From: Patescibacteria group bacterium
Lineage (GTDB): Bacteria > Patescibacteriota > Patescibacteriia > UBA9934
Assembly (NCBI GenBank): GCA_038064675.1
Contig: JBBTSM010000003.1
Location: 38,663 to 102,662 of the forward strand
Direction: 5' to 3'
Length of the DNA: 64,000 bases
How positions within the stretch are numbered: position 1 is the stretch's first letter; each line of letters opens with the position of its first letter. Positions 5,752 to 61,459 of this stretch are shown piece by piece. A model generated the notes under the pieces. That model was not told where the DNA came from. It saw only the letters and a list, made by a program, of their open reading frames with translations, and did no database searches. A program made the position numbers and the translations under genes.

Positions 5752-7149
5752 TTACCAAACCTCCTTCAGTTTCTGCCCGCTTGGCGTGTCGTCGATGTCA
5801 AAGCTAAGCTTTAACACTTCGTCCCGTAACTCATCGGATTTCTTCCAATCCTTGTTCGATCTTGCCACTTCGCGATCGGTGACCAGCTTCTCGACAGCGC
5901 TCGGAATCGCTAATGGTCGGGCAACAACATCTTCCAGCGCAAGGCCGAGAATTTCGTCCATCGCAAGGAGCGTCGCCGATTTCACTGAACGCTCCATTGA
6001 TACGTGATTGAGTACGCCGTAAAAGATCGCGAGTGCGCCGGGCGTGTCGAGATCGTCGTTAATGTGTTCCATGAACTGCACCATAGATTCCGCATCTGCT
6101 TCGCTCGGCTTCGGCAAATCGCGAACCGCGTTTCGAATATTCCCGAGTGCGATGTGCGACGCCCCAACCGCATCCCACGTGAAGTTCTGCGGCGTTCGAT
6201 AATGTGCGCCGAGGATAAAGAGACGGAAACTCAAGGGATGAATCTTATGCGCCTCCAGATCGGCAACCGTATACGTATTGTTCAACGACTTACTCATCTT
6301 CCCGCCATCAATCTGCAGGAATTCATTATGCATCCAAAAATTCGCTTCAAGACAGTTTCTTGCGGCAAGTGTCTGCGCGATCTCGTTTTCATGATGAACC
6401 GCAATGTGATCGATTCCGCCAGTGTGCACATCGAATGGAACGCCGAGATATTTCTCGCTCATCGCAGAGCATTCAATGTGCCAACCCGGAAACCCAACGC
6501 CCCACGGCGATTCCCACTCCATCTGTCGCTTCTGGGTTGCTGCGTCCGAGCTCGGCGACGGTGAAAACTTCCACAGTGCAAAATCTGACGCATTCTTTTT
6601 GTCTCCAATTGATACGCGAGCGCCACCTTCTTTCTCATCGAGCGACTGCCCGGAAAGCTGGCCGTACGATGAAAGCTTAGACGTATCGAAATACACTCCA
6701 TCCGCAATCGTGTACGTGTAGCCATTCTTCTCGATCTCCTGAATCATCGCGATCTGTTCGGCGATGTGATCAGTTGCCTTCGGGCTGACATGCGGCATGA
6801 GCATGTTGAACCTTTTCATGTCCTCAAAGTAGAGCGCCGTATATTTCGCTGCGATATCCCACGCACTCTCCCCGGTTTTCTCACTCATCATCTGCAGCTT
6901 CTCCGCACCACCGTCAAGATCGCCAACCAAATGTCCAACGTCGGTAATATTAATGGCCTGCGTTACCGCATAGTCGTTCGCCTCAAACATTCTGCGCAGC
7001 GTATCCGCCATGAGGAACGCACGAAAGTTTCCGATGTGTCCACGACCGTAGACCGTAAGACCGCAGCTGTAGATTCCCACTTTTCCCGGCACCAATGGCG
7101 CAAAGGCCTGTTTTTTTCGCCCAAGCGTATTGAAAAGATGAATCGCCAT
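5752..7149 (-). CDS. cysS: cysteine--tRNA ligase
   Basis: HIGN(F) class I motif region, KMSKS motif (KMSKSLNN), length 465 aa. Confidence 0.95.
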   Translation of the reverse strand: MAIHLFNTLGRKKQAFAPLVPGKVGIYSCGLTVYGRGHIGNFRAFLMADTLRRMFEANDYAVTQAINITDVGHLVGDLDGGAEKLQMMSEKTGESAWDIAAKYTALYFEDMKRFNMLMPHVSPKATDHIAEQIAMIQEIEKNGYTYTIADGVYFDTSKLSSYGQLSGQSLDEKEGGARVSIGDKKNASDFALWKFSPSPSSDAATQKRQMEWESPWGVGFPGWHIECSAMSEKYLGVPFDVHTGGIDHIAVHHENEIAQTLAARNCLEANFWMHNEFLQIDGGKMSKSLNNTYTVADLEAHKIHPLSFRLFILGAHYRTPQNFTWDAVGASHIALGNIRNAVRDLPKPSEADAESMVQFMEHINDDLDTPGALAIFYGVLNHVSMERSVKSATLLAMDEILGLALEDVVARPLAIPSAVEKLVTDREVARSNKDWKKSDELRDEVLKLSFDIDDTPSGQKLKEVW

Positions 7150-8581: not shown

Positions 8582-9037
8582 TTACCAAATCTTCCACCAC
8601 GGCTTCTTTGCTTGTCCGTCGCTCATTTCGCTCAAGGGTAATCCCGAGCGCTCACTTCGCTCGTTCTCCTGCTCCGGCTCCACAAACTTCACCCACCCGT
8701 CAATTCGGCGCATCTCCTTCTCGATGGTTGGCCCTTCATATTCACCGCTGTGCATGTGATTCGATCCGTACGACGGCTTCTTTTGGTCCAGGTGGAGGCT
8801 AAAGGTCACTTCGTCATTCTTATGATCAACATACAAATGGAATCGCGGATAAAACTCCCCCGTCAACCGCAACACAAAACTGCTTTCCCCACTCTGCGGA
8901 TCCGTAAACGCCGAATACCCCGCCTTCCGCAGAACGGCCAACGGGCTGTGCATGACGGCTTTGTCGTAGGTAACTTTCATAATCCAGAAATCAATCGATC
9001 CTAATGGCGCATCCGCTTGTTCCCGTATATTTACCAA
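8582..9037 (-). CDS. hypothetical protein
   Basis: 151-aa ORF. It overlaps the 5' end of the downstream HNH gene by 47 nt, so the true start is possibly an internal Met. Confidence 0.4.
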   Translation of the reverse strand: MVNIREQADAPLGSIDFWIMKVTYDKAVMHSPLAVLRKAGYSAFTDPQSGESSFVLRLTGEFYPRFHLYVDHKNDEVTFSLHLDQKKPSYGSNHMHSGEYEGPTIEKEMRRIDGWVKFVEPEQENERSERSGLPLSEMSDGQAKKPWWKIW

Positions 9038-10491: not shown

Positions 10492-10596
10492 CGAGCCGTA
10501 GCGCAGTGGTAGCGCGCTTGCATGGCGCTCGACGAGCTGAGCTAAGCGAGGAGAGTGTGCAAGAGGTCGTGGGTTCAACCCCCATCGGCTCGACCA
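10492..10596 (+). tRNA. aberrant 105-nt tRNA gene with ~30-nt insertion in the anticodon loop region (intron-like); identity undetermined
   Basis: Canonical acceptor stem CGAGCCG/CGGCUCG (C1:G72), D-arm GCGC-AGUGGUA-GCGC, T-arm GUGGG-UUCAACC-CCCAU, discriminator A and CCA encoded. The anticodon stem halves CUUGC (10517-21) and GCAAG (10559-63) are separated by 37 nt instead of 7. Confidence 0.5.
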
Positions 10597-15697: not shown

Positions 15698-16456
15698 TCA
15701 GCTCCGGCACTTCTTTGCGCCTCTTTTTATCCACATTATGAAGAAGATGCCGATTCCGAAAAAGACAATGGAAAAGTACTGCCCAGGGGTTAGTCCGAAG
15801 TAACGCACATCAATGACGCGTAAGAAATCGAGACCGAAGCGCGTTGCGCCGTACCAGATCGAAAACACGGCGATATAGATTCCAACAGGACGCTGCTTTC
15901 TCGACAGCCACAGAAACACCATCGCGAGCACACATGCATTCACCGATTCGTATAATCCAAGATCATGCCGCACAACACCGTCGGGATACTGCACGCCGAG
16001 CAAGAAGTGCGTTGCGGTTCCGGGATGGTCGTGAATAAGAAAACACCCAATACGTCCAATCCACATCCCAAACGGCATACCGAACGCAACAATATCGGTG
16101 TACCGAAGCAGATCAACTTTCCGATGACGCAAATACAGAATGCCCGTTATCGATGCAACGACGAAGCCGCCGTAAATCGATAATCCACCTTTCCAGATCT
16201 CGAACACTTCGGTGAAGTGCGCCGCGTAATATCCAGGATCGTAAAACAGTACGTGACCAAGTCTTCCACCAACCATTCCCGTAATCGCCACCCACGTCAG
16301 CATGTCCCACACAATTTGCGGATCATCCCCGCGCTGCTTCGCAAGTCGTGCCGCCATGAAAGCGCCGAGGAGAAAGCCGAAGGCAACGAACAAACCCCAG
16401 ACGTGGAGAGTGAGAGGGCCAAGGGAGAAGATTGTGAGGGAGAAGTATGGGATCAT
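15698..16456 (-). CDS. lgt: prolipoprotein diacylglyceryl transferase
   Basis: 252-aa polytopic membrane protein with Lgt signature regions (GGRLGHVLFY..., IGRIGCFL..H). Confidence 0.9.
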   Translation of the reverse strand: MIPYFSLTIFSLGPLTLHVWGLFVAFGFLLGAFMAARLAKQRGDDPQIVWDMLTWVAITGMVGGRLGHVLFYDPGYYAAHFTEVFEIWKGGLSIYGGFVVASITGILYLRHRKVDLLRYTDIVAFGMPFGMWIGRIGCFLIHDHPGTATHFLLGVQYPDGVVRHDLGLYESVNACVLAMVFLWLSRKQRPVGIYIAVFSIWYGATRFGLDFLRVIDVRYFGLTPGQYFSIVFFGIGIFFIMWIKRGAKKCRS

Positions 16457-16923
16457 ACCAAAGCCCCCTCCGACTCCCCCATAAATGGGGGAGAGATATC
16501 ATCGAGCGTTCGTTCGATCGTTTTGATTACAGATACGGGGCTGTTCATAATTTCTTCGTTTCGGATTCGGAGGATGGCGTAGCCAGCACTCCTTAAATAC
16601 TCCTCACGATCTTCATCGTACTTTTTCGCGGCGTCAGAATCATGGACTGATCCGTCGATTTCAATAACGAGCTTCGCCTCATCACAGTATAAATCAACAA
16701 TGTAGAGCCCAATTCCATGTTGACGACGAAACTTCTTCCCACGAACCCTTCTCATTCGCACTAAATTCCAAAGAATCTTTTCCGCCGGAGTTTCGTTTGC
16801 TCTTAAATCACGCTGTCGTTCAACATACTTCGCGAGACCGCGAATTCGATCTCCAATAACCCGAAGCTTCCGATATGACTTCTCTCCCCCATTTATGGGG
16901 GAGTCGGAGGGGGCTTCGATCAT
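16453..16923 (-). CDS. DUF559 (Vsr-like very-short-patch-repair endonuclease fold) domain protein
   Basis: Core ...ETPAEKILWNLVRMRRVRGKKFRRQHGIGLYIVDLYCDEAKLVIEIDGSVHD...YLRSAGYAILRIRNEEI matches the DUF559/Vsr-like family. The first ~20 and last ~12 codons are encoded by the inverted repeats. Confidence 0.75.
   Translation of the reverse strand: MIEAPSDSPINGGEKSYRKLRVIGDRIRGLAKYVERQRDLRANETPAEKILWNLVRMRRVRGKKFRRQHGIGLYIVDLYCDEAKLVIEIDGSVHDSDAAKKYDEDREEYLRSAGYAILRIRNEEIMNSPVSVIKTIERTLDDISPPFMGESEGALV
16461..16496. repeat. 36-bp inverted repeat, left arm (GC-rich palindromic element family)
   Basis: aagccccctccgactcccccataaatgggggagaga. Its exact reverse complement is at 16881..16916. It contains the internal hairpin CTCCCCCAT-aa-ATGGGGGAG. 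Confidence 0.9.
16881..16916. repeat. 36-bp inverted repeat, right arm
   Basis: Perfect reverse complement of 16461..16496. Confidence 0.9.
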
Positions 16924-17372
16924 AACGCCCCCAGCACCACCAATGCCCGCTTAAACTCGGCGATTGCTTTTTCTGCTTGCGCGATCTTCAACTCCGATCC
17001 TGCTTCGTGAACCAGAGTATTTCTGAGCGACCGTGCCCAGAAGGTTCGCTGGAGGTCGTGATATTTCCTGCTCGCAAACTTTAATCGCTCCCCCGTCGTT
17101 GTTCCTGGAAACGATTTTGCTTTTAATGCAAGGTCGAGCACTGCGTCGGCCTGGATAATCGCCAATCGCAGACTCATCACGTCGCCACGACGAGCGAGAT
17201 CTTCAACCGCCTTCCAGTGCTTCGATACATTGTCTCGTTCACTTCCAAATCTCCATCGCCGCATCGCCCGCCGAAGCCACACCGTCGCCATCAGCAGAAA
17301 TACAAAACCGACGGCGCCGATGACCACGTACGGAAGTACGGCTGATGCCATCGATGCAACGTCGGTTTTCAT
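16920..17372 (-). CDS. hypothetical membrane-anchored protein
   Basis: 150 aa with one N-terminal TM helix (VVIGAVGFVFLLMATVW). 4-nt overlap with the downstream ORF start. Confidence 0.45.
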   Translation of the reverse strand: MKTDVASMASAVLPYVVIGAVGFVFLLMATVWLRRAMRRWRFGSERDNVSKHWKAVEDLARRGDVMSLRLAIIQADAVLDLALKAKSFPGTTTGERLKFASRKYHDLQRTFWARSLRNTLVHEAGSELKIAQAEKAIAEFKRALVVLGAL

Positions 17373-19093: not shown

Positions 19094-21370
<2,277 letters not shown>

Positions 21371-24342: not shown

Positions 24343-24361
24343 GGTGTTAAAGCTTAGCTTT
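24343..24361. repeat. REP-like palindromic repeat copy 1 (gtgttaaagcttagctttg)
   Basis: Contains the AAAGCT-t-AGCTTT palindrome. Three copies flank the RAYT-like gene. Confidence 0.7.
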
Positions 24362-24403
24362 GACACCGTAACACTGATCAAATCTCCCAAATAATTTGAA
24401 GAT

Positions 24404-25042
24404 TCAAATGTTAAAGCTTAGCTTTGCCATATCACGATGTGGGATCCAGGATCTCACAAATTCTAGATACTCTTCTGGCGGTATGAGTGATGCCAAAAAT
24501 TCTGGATGAATAATGGGATCGATTGTTTTACCGATGTAATGACGAAAACTTGACCATGGATACTCAAGAAGCTTTTCAAAACGACCTTCGCTATCAGCGA
24601 ACAGGTCGAGTTGATTCAGATGAACGTAACGTGTCGAATGAAGAAACTGACGATCGTCCTCGATCAAAACAGACTTATACGATGATTCGAATAAGGATCC
24701 GGTCCGATCGTATTTTCGATTAAAGTACTTCGTGTACCCCGTACCAAGTCGCTGCATAAACCTCGCAACACCATCATCAGCGATCTGTTTCACGATAAAG
24801 TGAACGTGATTATTCATCAATGTGTAACAAATGATCTCGACCAAAGGAGTCGTCGAACGTAGCGGATGACTGCCGTCTTCTCCGAGCTCAGGCTTCCTTG
24901 CGATCACTTCATCGTCGTTGAATAGAATGCAACCTCGAAGAAATCGACGTCGATCCTCATCACACAGAAAGGTATCCCGCCGATCAACTCCACGGTTGTA
25001 AATATGGTAATAACAGCCCGCTACCATCGGAGTAACACGCAT
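24404..25042 (-). CDS. IS200/IS605-like Y1 HuH transposase family protein (REP-associated tyrosine transposase-like)
   Basis: HuH motif NHVHFIV, downstream GTGYTKYFN (candidate catalytic Tyr region), 212 aa, bracketed by REP-like palindromes. Confidence 0.7.
   Translation of the reverse strand: MRVTPMVAGCYYHIYNRGVDRRDTFLCDEDRRRFLRGCILFNDDEVIARKPELGEDGSHPLRSTTPLVEIICYTLMNNHVHFIVKQIADDGVARFMQRLGTGYTKYFNRKYDRTGSLFESSYKSVLIEDDRQFLHSTRYVHLNQLDLFADSEGRFEKLLEYPWSSFRHYIGKTIDPIIHPEFLASLIPPEEYLEFVRSWIPHRDMAKLSFNI
24409..24426. repeat. REP-like repeat copy 2
   Basis: tgttaaagcttagctttg. Confidence 0.7.
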
Positions 25043-25066: not shown

Positions 25067-25085
25067 GTGTTAAAGCTTAGCTTTG
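25067..25085. repeat. REP-like repeat copy 3
   Basis: gtgttaaagcttagctttg, immediately upstream of the RAYT-like gene start. Confidence 0.7.
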
Positions 25086-25504
25086 TTTTTCACCCCATCC
25101 AACGTTTCATTCACCAGCGCGTCGGCGGCAGTATTTTGTTCGCGGAACACATGAGAGAATGTCGCTTTCCTGAATTTCGTTCGGAGATTGTGCACCTCAA
25201 GGAACCGCTTAGCGATTTCGGCATTTTTCACACGGTAGATACCGTTAATCTGCTTCACCGCCAGCTCGGAATCGAGGCGAACATCAATTTCCTCATATCC
25301 AAGATCGAGCGCCTTTTGTAAACCAATGATGATACCGGTGTACTCTGCTTGATTGTTCGTATCGATCCCAATGTACTTCGCGGCATCAGCAACGCGCTCG
25401 CCCTGCTCTCCGGCCGCCGATAACACAAAAAGAACTGCGGCGCCAGCAGCAGGCCCCGGATTTCCTCGACTCCCCCCGTCGGCGTACATTCTCACTTTTT
25501 TCAT
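25070..25504 (-). CDS. rnhA: ribonuclease HI
   Basis: YADGGSRGNPGPAAG...QAEYTGII..L...E..VRLDSELAVKQ pattern of RNase H. Start MKKVRMY at 25504 forms an ATGA overlap with the recJ stop. Confidence 0.85.
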   Translation of the reverse strand: MKKVRMYADGGSRGNPGPAAGAAVLFVLSAAGEQGERVADAAKYIGIDTNNQAEYTGIIIGLQKALDLGYEEIDVRLDSELAVKQINGIYRVKNAEIAKRFLEVHNLRTKFRKATFSHVFREQNTAADALVNETLDGVKNKAKL

Positions 25505-32085: not shown

Positions 32086-33240
32086 TTAGCACGAAATCAC
32101 TCCACTCCCAATAAGCTCTTCTCCACGATAAAATGCAATGAATTGCCCAGGTGCGACGGCGCGTTGAGGAGAAGAAAAGTGAACAACAAATGCAACGGAG
32201 AGCGATGGGGTCAGGTCTTTACCTTTTACTTTTTCAATAACACATTCTGCCAATGGCTGCCGGTATCGGATCCTCGCCATGATCGGCTCACCGATCGCAT
32301 GGTCGATTGCGCCAGGAATGGTTTCGCTGATGTTCGTCGCGACAAGATCCGATCGGAACAGTGCCGGATCATCGGCTCCAACGGCAACAATCACTTCGTT
32401 TGTTTCCGGCCTGCGATCAACAACATATAGCGGCGTGCCTCCGCCGATTCCTAATCCCCCACGCTGGCCGATAGTGTAAAACTCGAATCCACGATGCTTG
32501 CCGAGGACTTTCCCCTCAGTCGTCACGATATTGCCGTCATGCGGCGTAATACGAGCCTCAAGAAACTGTTGCATGTCTACTTGACCAACGAAGCAAATGC
32601 CTTGGCTGTCTCTCTTTTGGGCAGTGGGCAAGTGGGCAAGCTGGGCAAGGCGCCGAACCTCGGCCTTCTGCAAGTCACCGATGGGAAAGAGTGATCGCTT
32701 CAACTGATCCTGATTCAGCTGACACAAGAAATAGGTTTGATCTTTATTTTCGTCGAGGCCGACGAGCAAGTGAGCAGAACCTTCCCCCTTACCCCCGCTC
32801 TCCTCGCCCGCCGCAGCTCGTCGAGCGCCTTCGTAAGGAGTGGGAGTGTCATCAACCCTTCGCGCGTAATGGCCAGTCGCAATGAAATCACAGCCGAGCT
32901 TATCGGCTTCCTTCAAAAACAAATCGAACTTCATGTACTTATTGCACAGCACGTCCGGATTCGGTGTTCGTCCGGCTTTGTATTCGTCAATCATGTATTC
33001 GTACACCTTCGATCGGTACTGCTCCTCAAAATCAAATGTATAAAATTTCAATCCCAACTGCCCAGCAACGCGCATTGCATCACGTCGCTCTCGTCGCCAC
33101 TCGCACTCCTCGCCGTCGTCGTTCGTGCTCCAGTTTTTCATGAAGCCACCAATCACCTCGTATCCTTGTTCCAACAACAACACCGCAGCAACGCTGCTGT
33201 CCACGCCGCCAGACATTCCAAGGAGAACGCGCTTCGCCAT
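32086..33240 (-). CDS. mnmA: tRNA 2-thiouridine(34) synthase MnmA
   Basis: PP-loop SGGVDSSVAA, catalytic Cys regions, CDFIATGHYARR. Contains a ~20-aa repeat-derived insertion. Confidence 0.95.
   Translation of the reverse strand: MAKRVLLGMSGGVDSSVAAVLLLEQGYEVIGGFMKNWSTNDDGEECEWRRERRDAMRVAGQLGLKFYTFDFEEQYRSKVYEYMIDEYKAGRTPNPDVLCNKYMKFDLFLKEADKLGCDFIATGHYARRVDDTPTPYEGARRAAAGEESGGKGEGSAHLLVGLDENKDQTYFLCQLNQDQLKRSLFPIGDLQKAEVRRLAQLAHLPTAQKRDSQGICFVGQVDMQQFLEARITPHDGNIVTTEGKVLGKHRGFEFYTIGQRGGLGIGGGTPLYVVDRRPETNEVIVAVGADDPALFRSDLVATNISETIPGAIDHAIGEPIMARIRYRQPLAECVIEKVKGKDLTPSLSVAFVVHFSSPQRAVAPGQFIAFYRGEELIGSGVISC
32781..32846. repeat. degenerate GC-rich palindromic element inserted in-frame in mnmA (encodes ...TPTPYEGARRAAAGEESGGKGEGS...)
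   Basis: cttcccccttacccccgctctcc ... gccTTCGTAAGGAGtgggag. Shares the TTCGTAAGG core with the ligA and uvrB copies. Confidence 0.5.
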
Positions 33241-33345
33241 ACAAAAGTAAAAGGTAAAGACCTGACCCCGTTATTACGTCACGTTACGTCATTAGATATT
33301 CCAAGGAGAACTTTCTTTGGCATACAATGCGTCTATAGTGTACCG

Positions 33346-33443
33346 GAATGCCCAGATCCTGAGCGCATGCGAAGGATCCCGAGTGCGCCCAGATGGAACC
33401 TTCACGCATCTGACAGAGACCCTTCGCATACGCTCAGGGTCTA
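33346..33443. repeat. structured intergenic repeat, family A/B copy 2
   Basis: See 21176..21278. Here the H1 loop cctgagcgcatgcgaagg is complementary to the later ccttcgcatacgctcagg (1 mismatch). Confidence 0.65.
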
Positions 33444-38424: not shown

Positions 38425-38840
38425 AGCGAAAGAATTGACGTTGCATGAAACAAGATGAATGCAACCGCGATTCCTGGGAGCGCGACATAAAACGCGAAAA
38501 TTCCGAGAACGATGGCTGCAACGATAATCGTCACGAATCCGCGGCCCACCACATTCACCAAGCGCATAAACACGCTGATGATTCTGCTTTGCCAGTCGTA
38601 CCGGCCAAACATCGGCACAAACATATTCCTTGCCCACGTCATCACCCCAATGCTTCGAACATACCCCTGCACAAATTCCATTGCGTATGTTGCGGCACGA
38701 AGCAATCCCTTTCCGTACCACCACGCAGGGAAACGCAAAATATCGCCGCCCAATTCCCAAAGTAATCCCGCTCCATTCCCTCCTTGTGCACCTTGCATAT
38801 GGTGAGATTGTAACATGGCTTCGTTGAGCGAAATGAGCAA
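38421..38840 (-). CDS. small membrane protein, translationally coupled (ATGA overlap) to the Clp-like ATPase
   Basis: 139-aa ORF in a different frame from the rejected extension, with a hydrophobic C-terminus (FVTIIVAAIVLGIFAFYVALPGIAVAFILF). Confidence 0.5.
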   Translation of the reverse strand: MLISLNEAMLQSHHMQGAQGGNGAGLLWELGGDILRFPAWWYGKGLLRAATYAMEFVQGYVRSIGVMTWARNMFVPMFGRYDWQSRIISVFMRLVNVVGRGFVTIIVAAIVLGIFAFYVALPGIAVAFILFHATSILSL

Positions 38841-38957
38841 TCAACGATTACGCCTTAAGCGAATTGAGCGAGTGAAATACGAATCCGGCTCAGACCATCG
38901 CTCAATTCGCTCGCGCATCGCGCTCGCTCAAGGGTAATCCCGATCGCTCATCGTCAC

Positions 38958-53219: not shown

Positions 53220-53296
53220 ATGGGGGAAAGTAAAAGGTAAAGACCTGACCCCTTAGTTATACCTCGAATAACGAATCGATCAATACGGTTATCCTC

Positions 53297-55917: not shown

Positions 55918-55989
55918 AGCCTCACTCGCCCATTTTGCCCAAGGCGTAATCGCCGATCGCTCAAGCGTAGCGATCGCTCATTCTCCAGT

Positions 55990-59389: not shown

Positions 59390-61459
59390 TTACTTTCCGC
59401 GAGATCGCTTCCCTTTCTTTCCCTTCTTCATTCCCAACAACTCTTTACTCAACAACGCGATTTCATCTCGCAGAATCGCCGCGGTCTCGAAGAGCAAGTT
59501 TGCCGATGCTTTGTCCATTTCAATTTCCTTCTCACGAATCGCCTCCTCAATCTCCATCGGCGTTGCGCCAATTTCGATGTCGAGAATCTTTGATGTGTCG
59601 GCCTCAAAATTCCGATCGAGTTCTGCGCGAATGTCTTTAATCGTCTTGATAATCGTTTGCGGCGTGATGCCGTGCTTGATGTTATGTGCGATCTGGATAG
59701 TACGACGACGTTCAGTTTCCTTCAGCGCCCTGTCGAGCGATCCTGTCATTTTATCGGCGTACAGAACAACCAAACCGTTCACGTTACGCGCCGCACGGCC
59801 GATAGTCTGAATCAACGACGTTTCCGATCGCAAGAATCCTTCCTTATCCGCATCGAGAACACCGATGAGCGAAACTTCTGGGAGATCGAGACCTTCGCGA
59901 AGCAAGTTCACTCCAACCACAACATCGTATGTTCCCCGTCGGAGCTCGGATAAGATAGTAATTCGATCCAAGGTTTCGACATCCGAGTGCAAATACGCAA
60001 CCTTCATTCCGCCTTCTTTGAGGTACGTCGTCAAATCCTCCGCCATCTTCTTCGTCAGCGTCGTCACCAACGCTCGCTCACCTTTTGTAACACGGTCCTT
60101 AATGCGCTCGACAATATCGGCGACTTGGCCCGGGAAAGGACCCCCTCCGACTCCCCCTTCGTAAGGGGGAGCGTTGTCGGTCTGCGTTACTGGCAGCACC
60201 AATGTTTCTGGATCGACCAATCCCGTTGGACGAATAATCTGTTCAACGATCTTTTCCGATGTTTCCCTCTCAACCACTCCAGGCGTTGCTGAAACGTAGA
60301 CAGTCTGACCGATCGTCTTATCGAACTCTTGGTATGTTAACGGTCGATTATCCTTTGCCGATGGAAGACGGAATCCGAAATCGACCAACGTCTGTTTTCG
60401 GGCCTGATCACCGGCGAACATACCACCGATCTGTGGGAGCGTGACGTGTGATTCGTCGATAATCGTCAAGAAATCCTTCGGGAAATACGACAGCAACGTG
60501 TGTGCCGGTTCACCAACGCGACGGCCGTCGAAGTGACGGGAATAGTTTTCAATTCCGCTACAGTATCCAACATTCCGAATCATCTCGATGTCGTATCTCG
60601 TACGTCGAGTTAAGCGTTCGGACTCTAAAAGCTTTCCCTCGATTTCGAATTCCTTGAGTCTATCAGCGAGCTCGGCTTCAATATCACGGATCGCGCGTTC
60701 CCGTTCGGCGGAATCGGACATGAAATGTTTCGCCGGAAAGAACCACGCATCCTCATTTTGTGTAAGGATTTTTCGCGTCACTTTGTTCAGCGCAAAAATT
60801 TCACGCACCGCATTGCCCTCAATAACAATGCGATACACCGTTTCATCGCTCGGCGGCATCACCTCGATGACATCACCGTTCGCGCGGAAGTGACCACGGG
60901 TTAAATCAGCATTCGTTCGCTCGTACTGCATCGCCACGAGCTGACGGAGAAAATCTGCACGATCGATCCGATCGTTCACTCGGAGATGAAGAACCTCGCG
61001 CTTGTACGCTTCTGGCGAACCCAAGCCGTAAATACAACTCACCGATGCAACCACAATGACATCGCGCCTCGATAACAACGACTGCGTTGCAGCGTGGCGC
61101 AATCGATCGATCTCCTCGTTAATCTGCGCGTCCTTTTCGATGTACGTATCTGTTCTCGGCATGTACGCCTCTGGCTGGTAGTAGTCGTAATAGGAAACGA
61201 AGTACGACACCGCATTGTCTGGAAAAAAATCGCGGAATTCGGAACACAACTGCGCGGCAAGGGTTTTGTTGTGCGCGATGACGAGCGTCGGTTTCTGCAC
61301 ATTCTGAATAACATTCGCCATCGTAAAAGTTTTTCCCGAACCCGTAACACCAAGAAGCGTCTGCCGATGCAGACCGTCCTTGATCCCATCGGTGAGATCC
61401 GCAATTGCCTTCGGCTGATCGCCCGCTGGAGAATATTTTGAGACGAGATTGAATGACAT
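59390..61459 (-). CDS. uvrB: excinuclease ABC subunit B
   Basis: Helicase motifs (GVTGSGKT, DESH), UvrB interaction domain, C-terminal basic tail. Contains an in-frame palindromic-element insertion. Confidence 0.95.
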   Translation of the reverse strand: MSFNLVSKYSPAGDQPKAIADLTDGIKDGLHRQTLLGVTGSGKTFTMANVIQNVQKPTLVIAHNKTLAAQLCSEFRDFFPDNAVSYFVSYYDYYQPEAYMPRTDTYIEKDAQINEEIDRLRHAATQSLLSRRDVIVVASVSCIYGLGSPEAYKREVLHLRVNDRIDRADFLRQLVAMQYERTNADLTRGHFRANGDVIEVMPPSDETVYRIVIEGNAVREIFALNKVTRKILTQNEDAWFFPAKHFMSDSAERERAIRDIEAELADRLKEFEIEGKLLESERLTRRTRYDIEMIRNVGYCSGIENYSRHFDGRRVGEPAHTLLSYFPKDFLTIIDESHVTLPQIGGMFAGDQARKQTLVDFGFRLPSAKDNRPLTYQEFDKTIGQTVYVSATPGVVERETSEKIVEQIIRPTGLVDPETLVLPVTQTDNAPPYEGGVGGGPFPGQVADIVERIKDRVTKGERALVTTLTKKMAEDLTTYLKEGGMKVAYLHSDVETLDRITILSELRRGTYDVVVGVNLLREGLDLPEVSLIGVLDADKEGFLRSETSLIQTIGRAARNVNGLVVLYADKMTGSLDRALKETERRRTIQIAHNIKHGITPQTIIKTIKDIRAELDRNFEADTSKILDIEIGATPMEIEEAIREKEIEMDKASANLLFETAAILRDEIALLSKELLGMKKGKKGKRSRGK
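60141..60171. repeat. GC-rich palindromic element inserted in-frame in uvrB (encodes NAPPYEGGVGGGP)
   Basis: ccccctccgactccccc + CTCCCCCTT-cgt-AAGGGGGAG. The 17-mer ccccctccgactccccc is identical to the DUF559 inverted-repeat arm at 16465-16481. Confidence 0.75.

Follow-up and report, generated by a model that had tools for sequence, protein, structure and literature searches.

Palindromic repeats that lie in frame in unrelated housekeeping genes, adding a surface peptide to the encoded proteins, have been described as Rickettsia palindromic elements (RPEs), for which no associated transposase gene of known class is recognised (PMC10969869). Here, we present a shorter palindromic element from a 64,000 nt-long stretch of DNA, called the window in the following, of a Patescibacteria group bacterium (GenBank assembly GCA_038064675.1, contig JBBTSM010000003.1, positions 38,663 to 102,662), in which one solo copy is located within uvrB, a second one within ligA, and two inverted copies form the termini, or arms, of a cassette with a gene of the DUF559 family. 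Our reading, to which we assign a probability of about 0.6, is that the insert in uvrB represents one solo copy of a small mobile element consisting of a tail and a hairpin, that the termini of the DUF559 cassette are the same module and that the putative mobilising enzyme is DUF559. [quoted passage not shown]

Like the RPEs, the element is in frame in uvrB and ligA and lies, in the structure model of UvrB, in a disordered surface coil. RPEs, however, measure ~100-150 bp and are found in Rickettsia only, whereas the element in the window is 30-42 bp long, GC-rich, open in all six frames, occurs in many phyla, is hosted here by a metagenome-assembled genome (MAG) of Patescibacteria and has its sequence in common with the termini of a nuclease cassette. 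Repetitive extragenic palindromes (REPs) and their doublet form, the REPINs, are reportedly short hairpins that carry, on the 5′ side, a conserved single-stranded tail, occur solo and as inverted doublets, and are said to include one enzyme gene, encoding the REP-associated tyrosine transposase (RAYT), between inverted copies matching the genome's own repeats. The tail and hairpin, the solo copies, an inverted doublet (locus L121) and the single flanked enzyme gene all resemble this arrangement, but the flanked gene encodes a DUF559/Vsr-like PD-(D/E)XK protein and not a Y1 transposase of the IS200/IS605 type, a GTAG tetranucleotide is lacking, the two solo copies of the window lie within genes, as copies elsewhere often do, the core is shared across phyla instead of being species-specific, and a target duplication is present. 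With MITEs and insertion sequences (ISs), the system shares terminal inverted repeats, a 7-bp target duplication, an empty site in relatives, the gene-less doublet of L121 and occasional in-frame fusions with host genes, yet the only open reading frame (ORF) encodes a nuclease of ~110-150 aa, without a DDE, serine or tyrosine transposase and without its own start or stop codon, and single arms are inserted as well. To our knowledge, the 460-bp unit is smaller than any known autonomous IS. Finally, the EDxHD homing endonuclease I-Bth0305I has a homologous nuclease fold, is likewise encoded by a selfish nuclease gene in conserved host genes and, like the cassette, occupies the same site in diverged genomes (PMC3239194), but its gene sits in a group I intron that is self-splicing, and the enzyme possesses additional DNA-binding domains, whereas the window cassette lacks an intron or intein, is translated through with Pro/Gly linkers and possesses inverted repeats and a target duplication. 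The tail-hairpin family is thus missing at least one defining feature of each of these systems, namely the size and host range of RPEs, the RAYT and extragenic location of REPs, the recognised transposase of MITEs and ISs and the intron or intein of EDxHD enzymes. Literature searches (DUF559 combined with palindromic, repeat or mobile; in-frame palindromic elements; palindromic insertions in the candidate phyla radiation) returned no description of the arms, the solo copies or the in-frame insertion, and, if our reading is right, we would be dealing with a widespread mobile-element system that is apparently undescribed in the literature searched.

The uvrB copy contains the 17-mer CCCCCTCCGACTCCCCC (Table 1), which recurs exactly in both cassette arms, at 16464-16480 (+) and 16897-16913 (−); a preliminary description of this DNA, which had already linked the uvrB palindrome and the DUF559 inverted repeats through this 17-mer, gave the left-arm match as 16465-16481, one base too high. 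With up to two mismatches allowed, there was no match in 100 dinucleotide-preserving shuffles of the window, the type of control that had been envisaged for a chance identity. A CTCCCCC-N-GGGGGAG hairpin was found at only three places in the window (16474, 16884 and 60151; 0.00 expected), and a scan for the mirror tail plus hairpin detected no more than four copies, one in each DUF559 arm, one in uvrB and one in ligA (20584-20612), and none in 30 shuffles. The uvrB ORF translates continuously through the element as ...TQTDNAPPYEGGVGGGPFPGQ..., and both Pfam and PDB searches identified the host protein as UvrB, in agreement with the in-frame reading made earlier. The loops had been correctly described as different, TTCGTAA in uvrB and ATAAAT/ATTTAT in the DUF559 arms. 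The element is free of stop codons in all six frames and encodes a Pro/Gly/Ser-rich peptide. The earlier proposal that solo and nuclease-flanking copies form one family is supported by the 17-mer and hairpin, which are beyond chance, by the absence of all these insertions from close relatives, by a doublet with a cassette-like arm at the uvrB site and by the surface-loop position of the insert in the UvrB model.

The solo arms, like the cassette, are insertions absent from close relatives. In uvrB, the DNA alignment shows 42 nt where the empty allele L120 (UvrB 96% identical) has 6 nt, a net gain of 36 nt, and the UvrB sequences of the PDB are gapped by 18 residues here. Among 120 close UvrB homologues, 65 possess a short linker, e.g., LVLPVTQTADFPGQ in the 96%-identical P0037, and 55 are expanded at the same point; empty genes, to which the ancestral TQTAD is common, and filled genes are interleaved among close relatives. 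A repeat search of the window revealed the ligA copy as a diverged fourth copy, in frame (20584-20615). The corresponding empty site, L132, taken from the flank of an Lgt locus, encodes a LigA that reads LKLRGSHSGRIEVRGEV at the position of the insert, and E. coli LigA is gapped there too. The uvrB and ligA blocks each measure 42 nt, just like a single cassette arm. The AlphaFold2 model of the window UvrB (mean predicted local distance difference test score, pLDDT, of 79) places residues 428-441 in a coil between two helicase domains, with a pLDDT <50 at residues 432-439; the insert is therefore modelled as a disordered coil in the linker, which agrees with the surface loop considered in the preliminary description. 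In other Patescibacteria (P0040, P0049, P0051, P0061, P0062, P0089 and P0132), the UvrB linker contains other palindrome-encoded inserts (GHPREGGDP, SRHCEEGGPDEAI and SWKEGE repeats), suggesting that this linker is a general sink, or a hotspot, for several small-element families.

The DUF559 gene is located between lgt and a gene that we named hyp150. The sequence predicted that TATGATC is a 7-nt direct repeat and that hyp150 and lgt ancestrally overlapped at ATGA, and this prediction was matched exactly in five contigs of relatives (Lgt 85% and 81% identical), in which both genes overlap at ATGA without DUF559. The junction of the relatives reads ...GGGGGCGT TATGATC CCGTAC... and contains …GCGTTATGATCCCGTAC…, whereas the window reads ...GGGGGCGT TATGATC G-AAGCCCCC…[DUF559]…GGGGGCTT-TGG TATGATC CCATAC.... 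Comparison of the empty sites with the window thus delimits a cassette of 460 bp, whose two inverted arms are 42 nt long and whose insertion produced a target duplication of 7 bp at the ATGA stop/start overlap. The DUF559 ORF borrows its start and stop codons from the two duplicates, so that hyp150, DUF559 and lgt all stay translationally coupled. Because the empty site has no arms, the arms must have come together with the gene, and homing of DUF559 into a pre-existing palindrome was rejected for this site for the same reason. The site is also occupied in the more distant L131 (hyp150 70% identical), with empty sites in relatives nearer to the window; the 32-nt arm core of L131 is identical to that of the window and the DUF559 proteins are 58% identical. 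In the ORF listings within ~1 kb on each side of the cassette, the part of the window screened for one, no transposase was noted. The gene hyp150 itself (16920-17372, −) encodes 150 aa without a Pfam match and is conserved in the syntenic order gatA-hyp150-lgt across relatives.

Table 1 Positions of the arms, cassette, target duplications and host genes in the 64,000-nt window.
Feature	Position	Strand	Details
Solo arm in uvrB	60137..60178	+	42-nt block AGGACCCCCTCCGACTCCCCCTTCGTAAGGGGGAGCGTTGTC; minus strand encodes DNAPPYEGGVGGGP; replaces 6 nt (Ala-Asp); DNA alignment with L120, 120 homologues
Mirror repeat CCCCCTC-CGA-CTCCCCC (tail, linker, 5′ stem arm), the 17-mer CCCCCTCCGACTCCCCC	60141..60157	+	
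Hairpin CTCCCCC(TT)-cgt-(AA)GGGGGAG	60151..60171	+	Loop-closing complementarity across copies
uvrB host gene	59390..61459	−	Linker bounded by strand 418-422 and helix 445-458 holds the insert (residues 428-441)
Solo arm in ligA	20576..20617	+	42-nt block …CCTCCCCC-cga-CCCCCTCC-ttcgtaa-GGAGGGGG…; 14 residues encoded; replaces 12 nt (GSHS) of L132, net +30 nt
ligA host gene (NAD-dependent DNA ligase)	19094..21100	−	Insert in adenylation-domain loop
DUF559 cassette, 460 bp, between hyp150 and lgt	16458..16917	−	Empty sites in L123-L127
42-nt arm of the cassette on the 3′ side of the gene, outward tail	16461..16502	+	95% complementary to the other arm
42-nt arm of the cassette on the 5′ side of the gene, outward tail	16875..16916	−	Inverted-repeat search
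DUF559 (Vsr-like PD-(D/E)XK) ORF, open through both arms	16453..16923	−	ATG from the left, TGA from the right duplicate of the target
Target-site duplication copy TATGATC (minus strand)	16451..16457	−	DUF559 stop and lgt start (ATGA)
Target-site duplication copy TATGATC (minus strand)	16918..16924	−	hyp150 stop and DUF559 start (ATGA)

Solo arm and cassette are connected by a gene-less two-arm derivative, which occupies the same uvrB linker in the MAGs GCA_943359525 and GCA_943356565. This doublet consists of two inverted arms 17 nt apart, adds 78 nt in frame, and its right arm differs from the window cassette arm by one mismatch in 32 nt. In GCA_943356565, there is in addition a DUF559 cassette, P0005, whose arms are closely similar variants and which lies between genes of the Wzy type and GT4, with TATGA at both junctions. 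This second cassette site is occupied in three related contigs, and TATGA or GTATGA is found at both junctions of the Wzy|GT4 cassettes. Arm peptides are retained at one or both termini in 11 of the 12 closest DUF559 homologues (48-64% identical), with APSDSPINGG or APSISPINGGGP N-terminally and SPPFMGE[SL]EGA or SPSIYGGARGG C-terminally, the exception being P0012 with a degenerate C-terminal arm only; hence, the arms are better conserved than the DUF559 protein.

Each arm is composed of a pyrimidine tail, a linker of 2-3 nt, a stem arm that mirrors the tail, a loop and a complementary purine arm. At least two extra pairs are formed at the loop-closing positions in 22 of 68 unique loops compared with 5.5 expected, which indicates selection on the hairpin. 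When folded as single-stranded DNA, the arms have free energies of −9 to −12 kcal/mol (z about −3), and the fold of the single uvrB copy yielded −11.4 kcal/mol with z −3.3. The 5′ tail is neither a direct nor an inverted repeat of the neighbouring stem arm, it is its mirror image and changes along with the stem, as exemplified by ligA (CCTCCCCC-cga-CCCCCTCC), the right arm of L128 (GGAGGGG-cta-GGGGAGG) and the left arm of L121 (CCTCCCC-cag-CCCCTCC). A table of stem class versus tail class is concentrated on the diagonal for all loci compared. Among 116 hairpins outside the main type, 20 have an exact mirror tail, versus 7.2 ± 2.1 by permutation (maximum of 15 in 2000 trials), and only two have a direct-repeat tail.

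Replication-type processes make direct or inverted repeats and not mirror repeats. Mirror repeats are compatible with intramolecular triplex pairing, by C+.G-C and T.A-T with a pyrimidine strand or by G.G-C and A.A-T with a purine strand. CCCCCTC-CGA-CTCCCCC resembles H-DNA in being a perfect mirror repeat on a homopyrimidine strand with a short spacer, and the T/A position obeys the triplex rules in every variant; different from H-DNA, the mirror repeat is joined here to a Watson-Crick hairpin on the same strand. A G-quadruplex or i-motif was rejected because one strand of a solo arm does not offer enough G or C tracts. Slippage between cassette arms was likewise rejected as the origin of the solo copy, since it would leave a two-tailed perfect palindrome and not a one-tailed arm. 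A multi-copy subfamily with a long conserved 5′ flank, ccggatcgactgcgggctgcgcccttgtctCTCCGACTCCCCCTCAAGGGGGGAGtgat, and without the mirror tail was observed in L010, L020, L022, L028, L038-L041, L048, L051, L076, L079 and others (Terriglobia, Nitrospirales and Ca. Versatilivorator), with two copies placed around a DUF559 gene in L022, their tails pointing inward.

The window ORF matches Pfam DUF559 with an E-value of 3e-33 and has no match to Y1_Tnp; MTES_1575 and DUF2726 were also reported. Vsr (PF03852) was not among its Pfam matches and the neighbours are gatA, hyp150, lgt and dsbA, so that an assignment to Vsr/Dcm repair is not supported. A profile of the DUF559 subfamily matched the PDB entries 3hrl (E 4e-32) and 3r3p (E 7e-5), the latter representing the Vsr-like catalytic domain of the intron-encoded homing endonuclease I-Bth0305I (PMC3239194). 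D77, E88, D90, H94 and other residues are invariant in the family and all are kept in the window protein. No intein domain appeared in the Pfam results, and the DUF559 ORF is continuous with the host frame. In a 2023 survey, DUF559 was enriched among predicted targets of programmed inversion, i.e., genes flanked by inverted repeats (PMC9881135).

An exact-pattern DNA scan (CTCCGACTCCCCC-N5-9-GGGGGAG, one genome per species) matched at least 117 DNA stretches, compared with a chance expectation of ~5, our own back-of-envelope estimate from pattern length and database size. The matches listed, to which the following counts refer, originate from Bacteroidales, Prevotella, Planctomycetota, Terriglobia, Nitrospirales, Chloroflexota, several Patescibacteria classes, Gammaproteobacteria, Streptomyces and a Thermoplasmata MAG. 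Four upstream C's, which are outside the search pattern, are present in 77 of 123 copies; the TTCGTAA loop recurs in L014 and L035 and the ATAAAT loop in L065 and L117; and stop-free ORFs enclose 48 of 130 copies at a depth of 60 codons or more, with both orientations and several frames represented. Copies inside PolA, SecA and PurL were confirmed by Pfam, and those inside UvrA, MetH, SMC and a resistance-nodulation-division (RND) pump were judged from translations alone. A scan of viral contigs with the DNA pattern returned only two matches, suggesting that phages are no obvious reservoir. In an Rfam search at gathering thresholds of the window and 10 loci, neither a family over the element nor an intron family was detected, only tRNAs.

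Complete cassettes are found within genes as well. In a Prevotella MAG (CAJODK010000031, L060, 5700-6140), DUF559 together with its arms is in frame inside priA, between the 3′BD and helicase domains. An exhaustive HMMER search with the DUF559 core yielded 10,153 cluster representatives at E ≤ 1e-10, and about one-third of the best 150 matches are long proteins with an internal DUF559. According to Pfam, DUF559 splits HsdR, HsdM, HsdS, Eco57I/MmeI-type and Type ISP proteins, flanked by other palindrome-encoded Pro/Gly/Ser-rich peptides; these restriction-modification (R-M) proteins with an in-frame DUF559 include P0291, P0338, P0391, P0344, P0319, P0322, P0351, P0381, P0364 and P0349. In HsdM, DUF559 repeatedly occupies a single position, which has the CLWF…K motif on one side and LFIDAR on the other, with flanking peptides of the PSPxGRGxGGEG type. 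We tentatively entertain the wider view, which we hold at somewhat below even odds, that selfish DUF559/Vsr-like cassettes invade genes throughout the bacteria without splicing. Their ORF would be open at both ends and their stop-free arms would serve as flexible Pro/Gly linkers, leaving the nuclease as an internal domain of the host protein or as an ATGA-coupled gene, and the arms might also spread alone as 30-42 bp in-frame inserts remodelling, in different phyla, surface loops of the essential UvrB, LigA, SecA, PolA, PriA and UvrA. If true, endonuclease genes would have a third mode of residence within other genes, in addition to the intron and the intein.

As a possible mode of action, the DUF559 nuclease would recognise the structured arm, that is, the hairpin with its mirror tail, possibly as an intramolecular triplex on single-stranded DNA, and would mobilise cassettes, doublets and solo arms in trans; selection might then filter the survivors for tolerated, in-frame sites. 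Since the module is stop-free in any frame and Pro/Gly/Ser-rich, insertions in multiples of three persist in permissive surface linkers of essential genes. Several observations weigh against this reading. The role of DUF559 as the mobilising enzyme, with the hairpin and mirror tail as its target, is itself inferred, which includes any cleavage or mobility of the arms, and the triplex fold of hairpin and tail is proposed from their symmetry alone. A target duplication of the cassette is known from two independent sites only, and none was recognised at the uvrB and ligA solo copies, where, unlike at the cassette, 6 and 12 nt of host sequence were replaced. The solo copies have the TTCGTAA loop and the resident cassette ATAAAT, and therefore they need not derive from that cassette. 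The geometry of the arms varies, with tails inward in L022 and arms as direct repeats in L077. The shared occupancy of sites fits repeated site-specific gain but fits equally an old insertion with precise loss, i.e., old vertical inheritance instead of recent mobility. Lastly, in a tblastn search with the window DUF559, a DUF559 gene adjoined only 3 of the at least 117 solo-type loci. This scarcity would be what a relation of the REP/RAYT type predicts, but would fit independence just as well. A rule that every copy adjoins a nuclease was rejected on these numbers.

Some of these points would favour a different scenario, in which mobility or replication of the arms depends on some enzyme or host process that is not DUF559, and DUF559 is cargo or a homing endonuclease that acquired the arms as protective stop-free linkers. 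The predominance of solo copies without DUF559 nearby, their deviating loops, the variable arm geometry between lineages, the missing target duplications at solo copies and the other arm types (PSPxGRGxGGEG) that flank DUF559 elsewhere would all be in its favour. We nevertheless consider this rather unlikely, as no other candidate gene was flanked by arms in any locus examined, the arm-encoded termini are kept by nearly all of the closest DUF559 homologues, the empty site shows that arms and gene arrived jointly, and one MAG holds both a doublet and a cassette with closely similar arm variants. Mobilisation by DUF559 is also compared with a scenario that we judge still less probable, in which the solo copies are decay products of former cassettes or doublets after internal deletion and the inverted arms mainly inversion or regulatory structures. 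The uvrB solo block indeed keeps an inner flank, GACAAC, comparable to GATAAC before the right arm of the L121 doublet, and lies at the same nucleotide position before TTCCC, both solo blocks have the length of one cassette arm, and the enrichment of DUF559 genes among predicted programmed-inversion targets (PMC9881135) points in the same direction. Decay, however, needs repeated cassette insertion with deletion of one arm at many unrelated genes in many phyla, the empty UvrB sites, with their common TQTAD, alternate with filled ones in the set of close relatives, the loop differs over its whole length between the uvrB solo copy and the doublet, and inversion would put DUF559 antisense in frame, breaking the host ORF of intragenic cassettes. 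A chance or convergent low-complexity Gly/Pro loop in uvrB, or an assembly artefact, for which the C and G runs and the variable linker length of UvrB homologues might speak, is already refuted by the shuffle controls and empty-site alignments, with the block absent from a 96%-identical orthologue, the same 31-nt architecture present in other phyla, in places with an identical loop, and identical counterparts of the UvrB with the insert and of the DUF559 protein recorded in other NCBI/ENA assemblies, in the case of DUF559 including a Hainich metagenome assembly.

If mobilisation by DUF559 is true, it would assign a role to one of the larger bacterial domains of unknown function and explain many of the short Pro/Gly-rich inserts and internal nuclease domains in housekeeping and R-M proteins, which disturb annotation, alignments and structure prediction. 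It would also mean that endonuclease genes can reside in essential genes without introns or inteins. The arm with its mirror repeat and hairpin could be tested as a candidate for a naturally occurring DNA triplex that a nuclease recognises, and the insertion polymorphisms could serve as strain markers in Patescibacteria.

The window contains further repeats. An 88-nt repeat (21189-21276 and 33355-33442, 81% identical), one copy of which is located just upstream of ligA, has its own terminal inverted repeat, GATCCTGAGCGCA…TGCTCAGGGTC, and looks like a second, unrelated MITE-like element. The sequence AAAGTAAAAGGTAAAGACCTGACCCC occurs three times (32207-32233, 33243-33269 and 53227-53259), two copies forming a perfect 27-nt inverted pair 1 kb apart. 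Four copies of a palindromic 21-mer, TGTTAAAGCTTAGCTTTGACA, are present (5796-5816, 24345-24365, 24409-24429 and 25068-25088), possibly as an operator or as a further repeat family, and the repeat TCGCTCAAGGGTAATCCCGAGCGCTCA at 8628-8654 and 38924-38950 (96% identical) is related to a 42-nt inverted pair at 38834-38875 and 55922-55963. Rfam reported a tRNA of 102 nt at 10492-10593 (+; 55 bits, model positions 1-71) that was not reported by ARAGORN and may be interrupted by an insertion or intron; a 53-nt inverted repeat (10524-10576 and 32777-32829) overlaps it with one of its arms.

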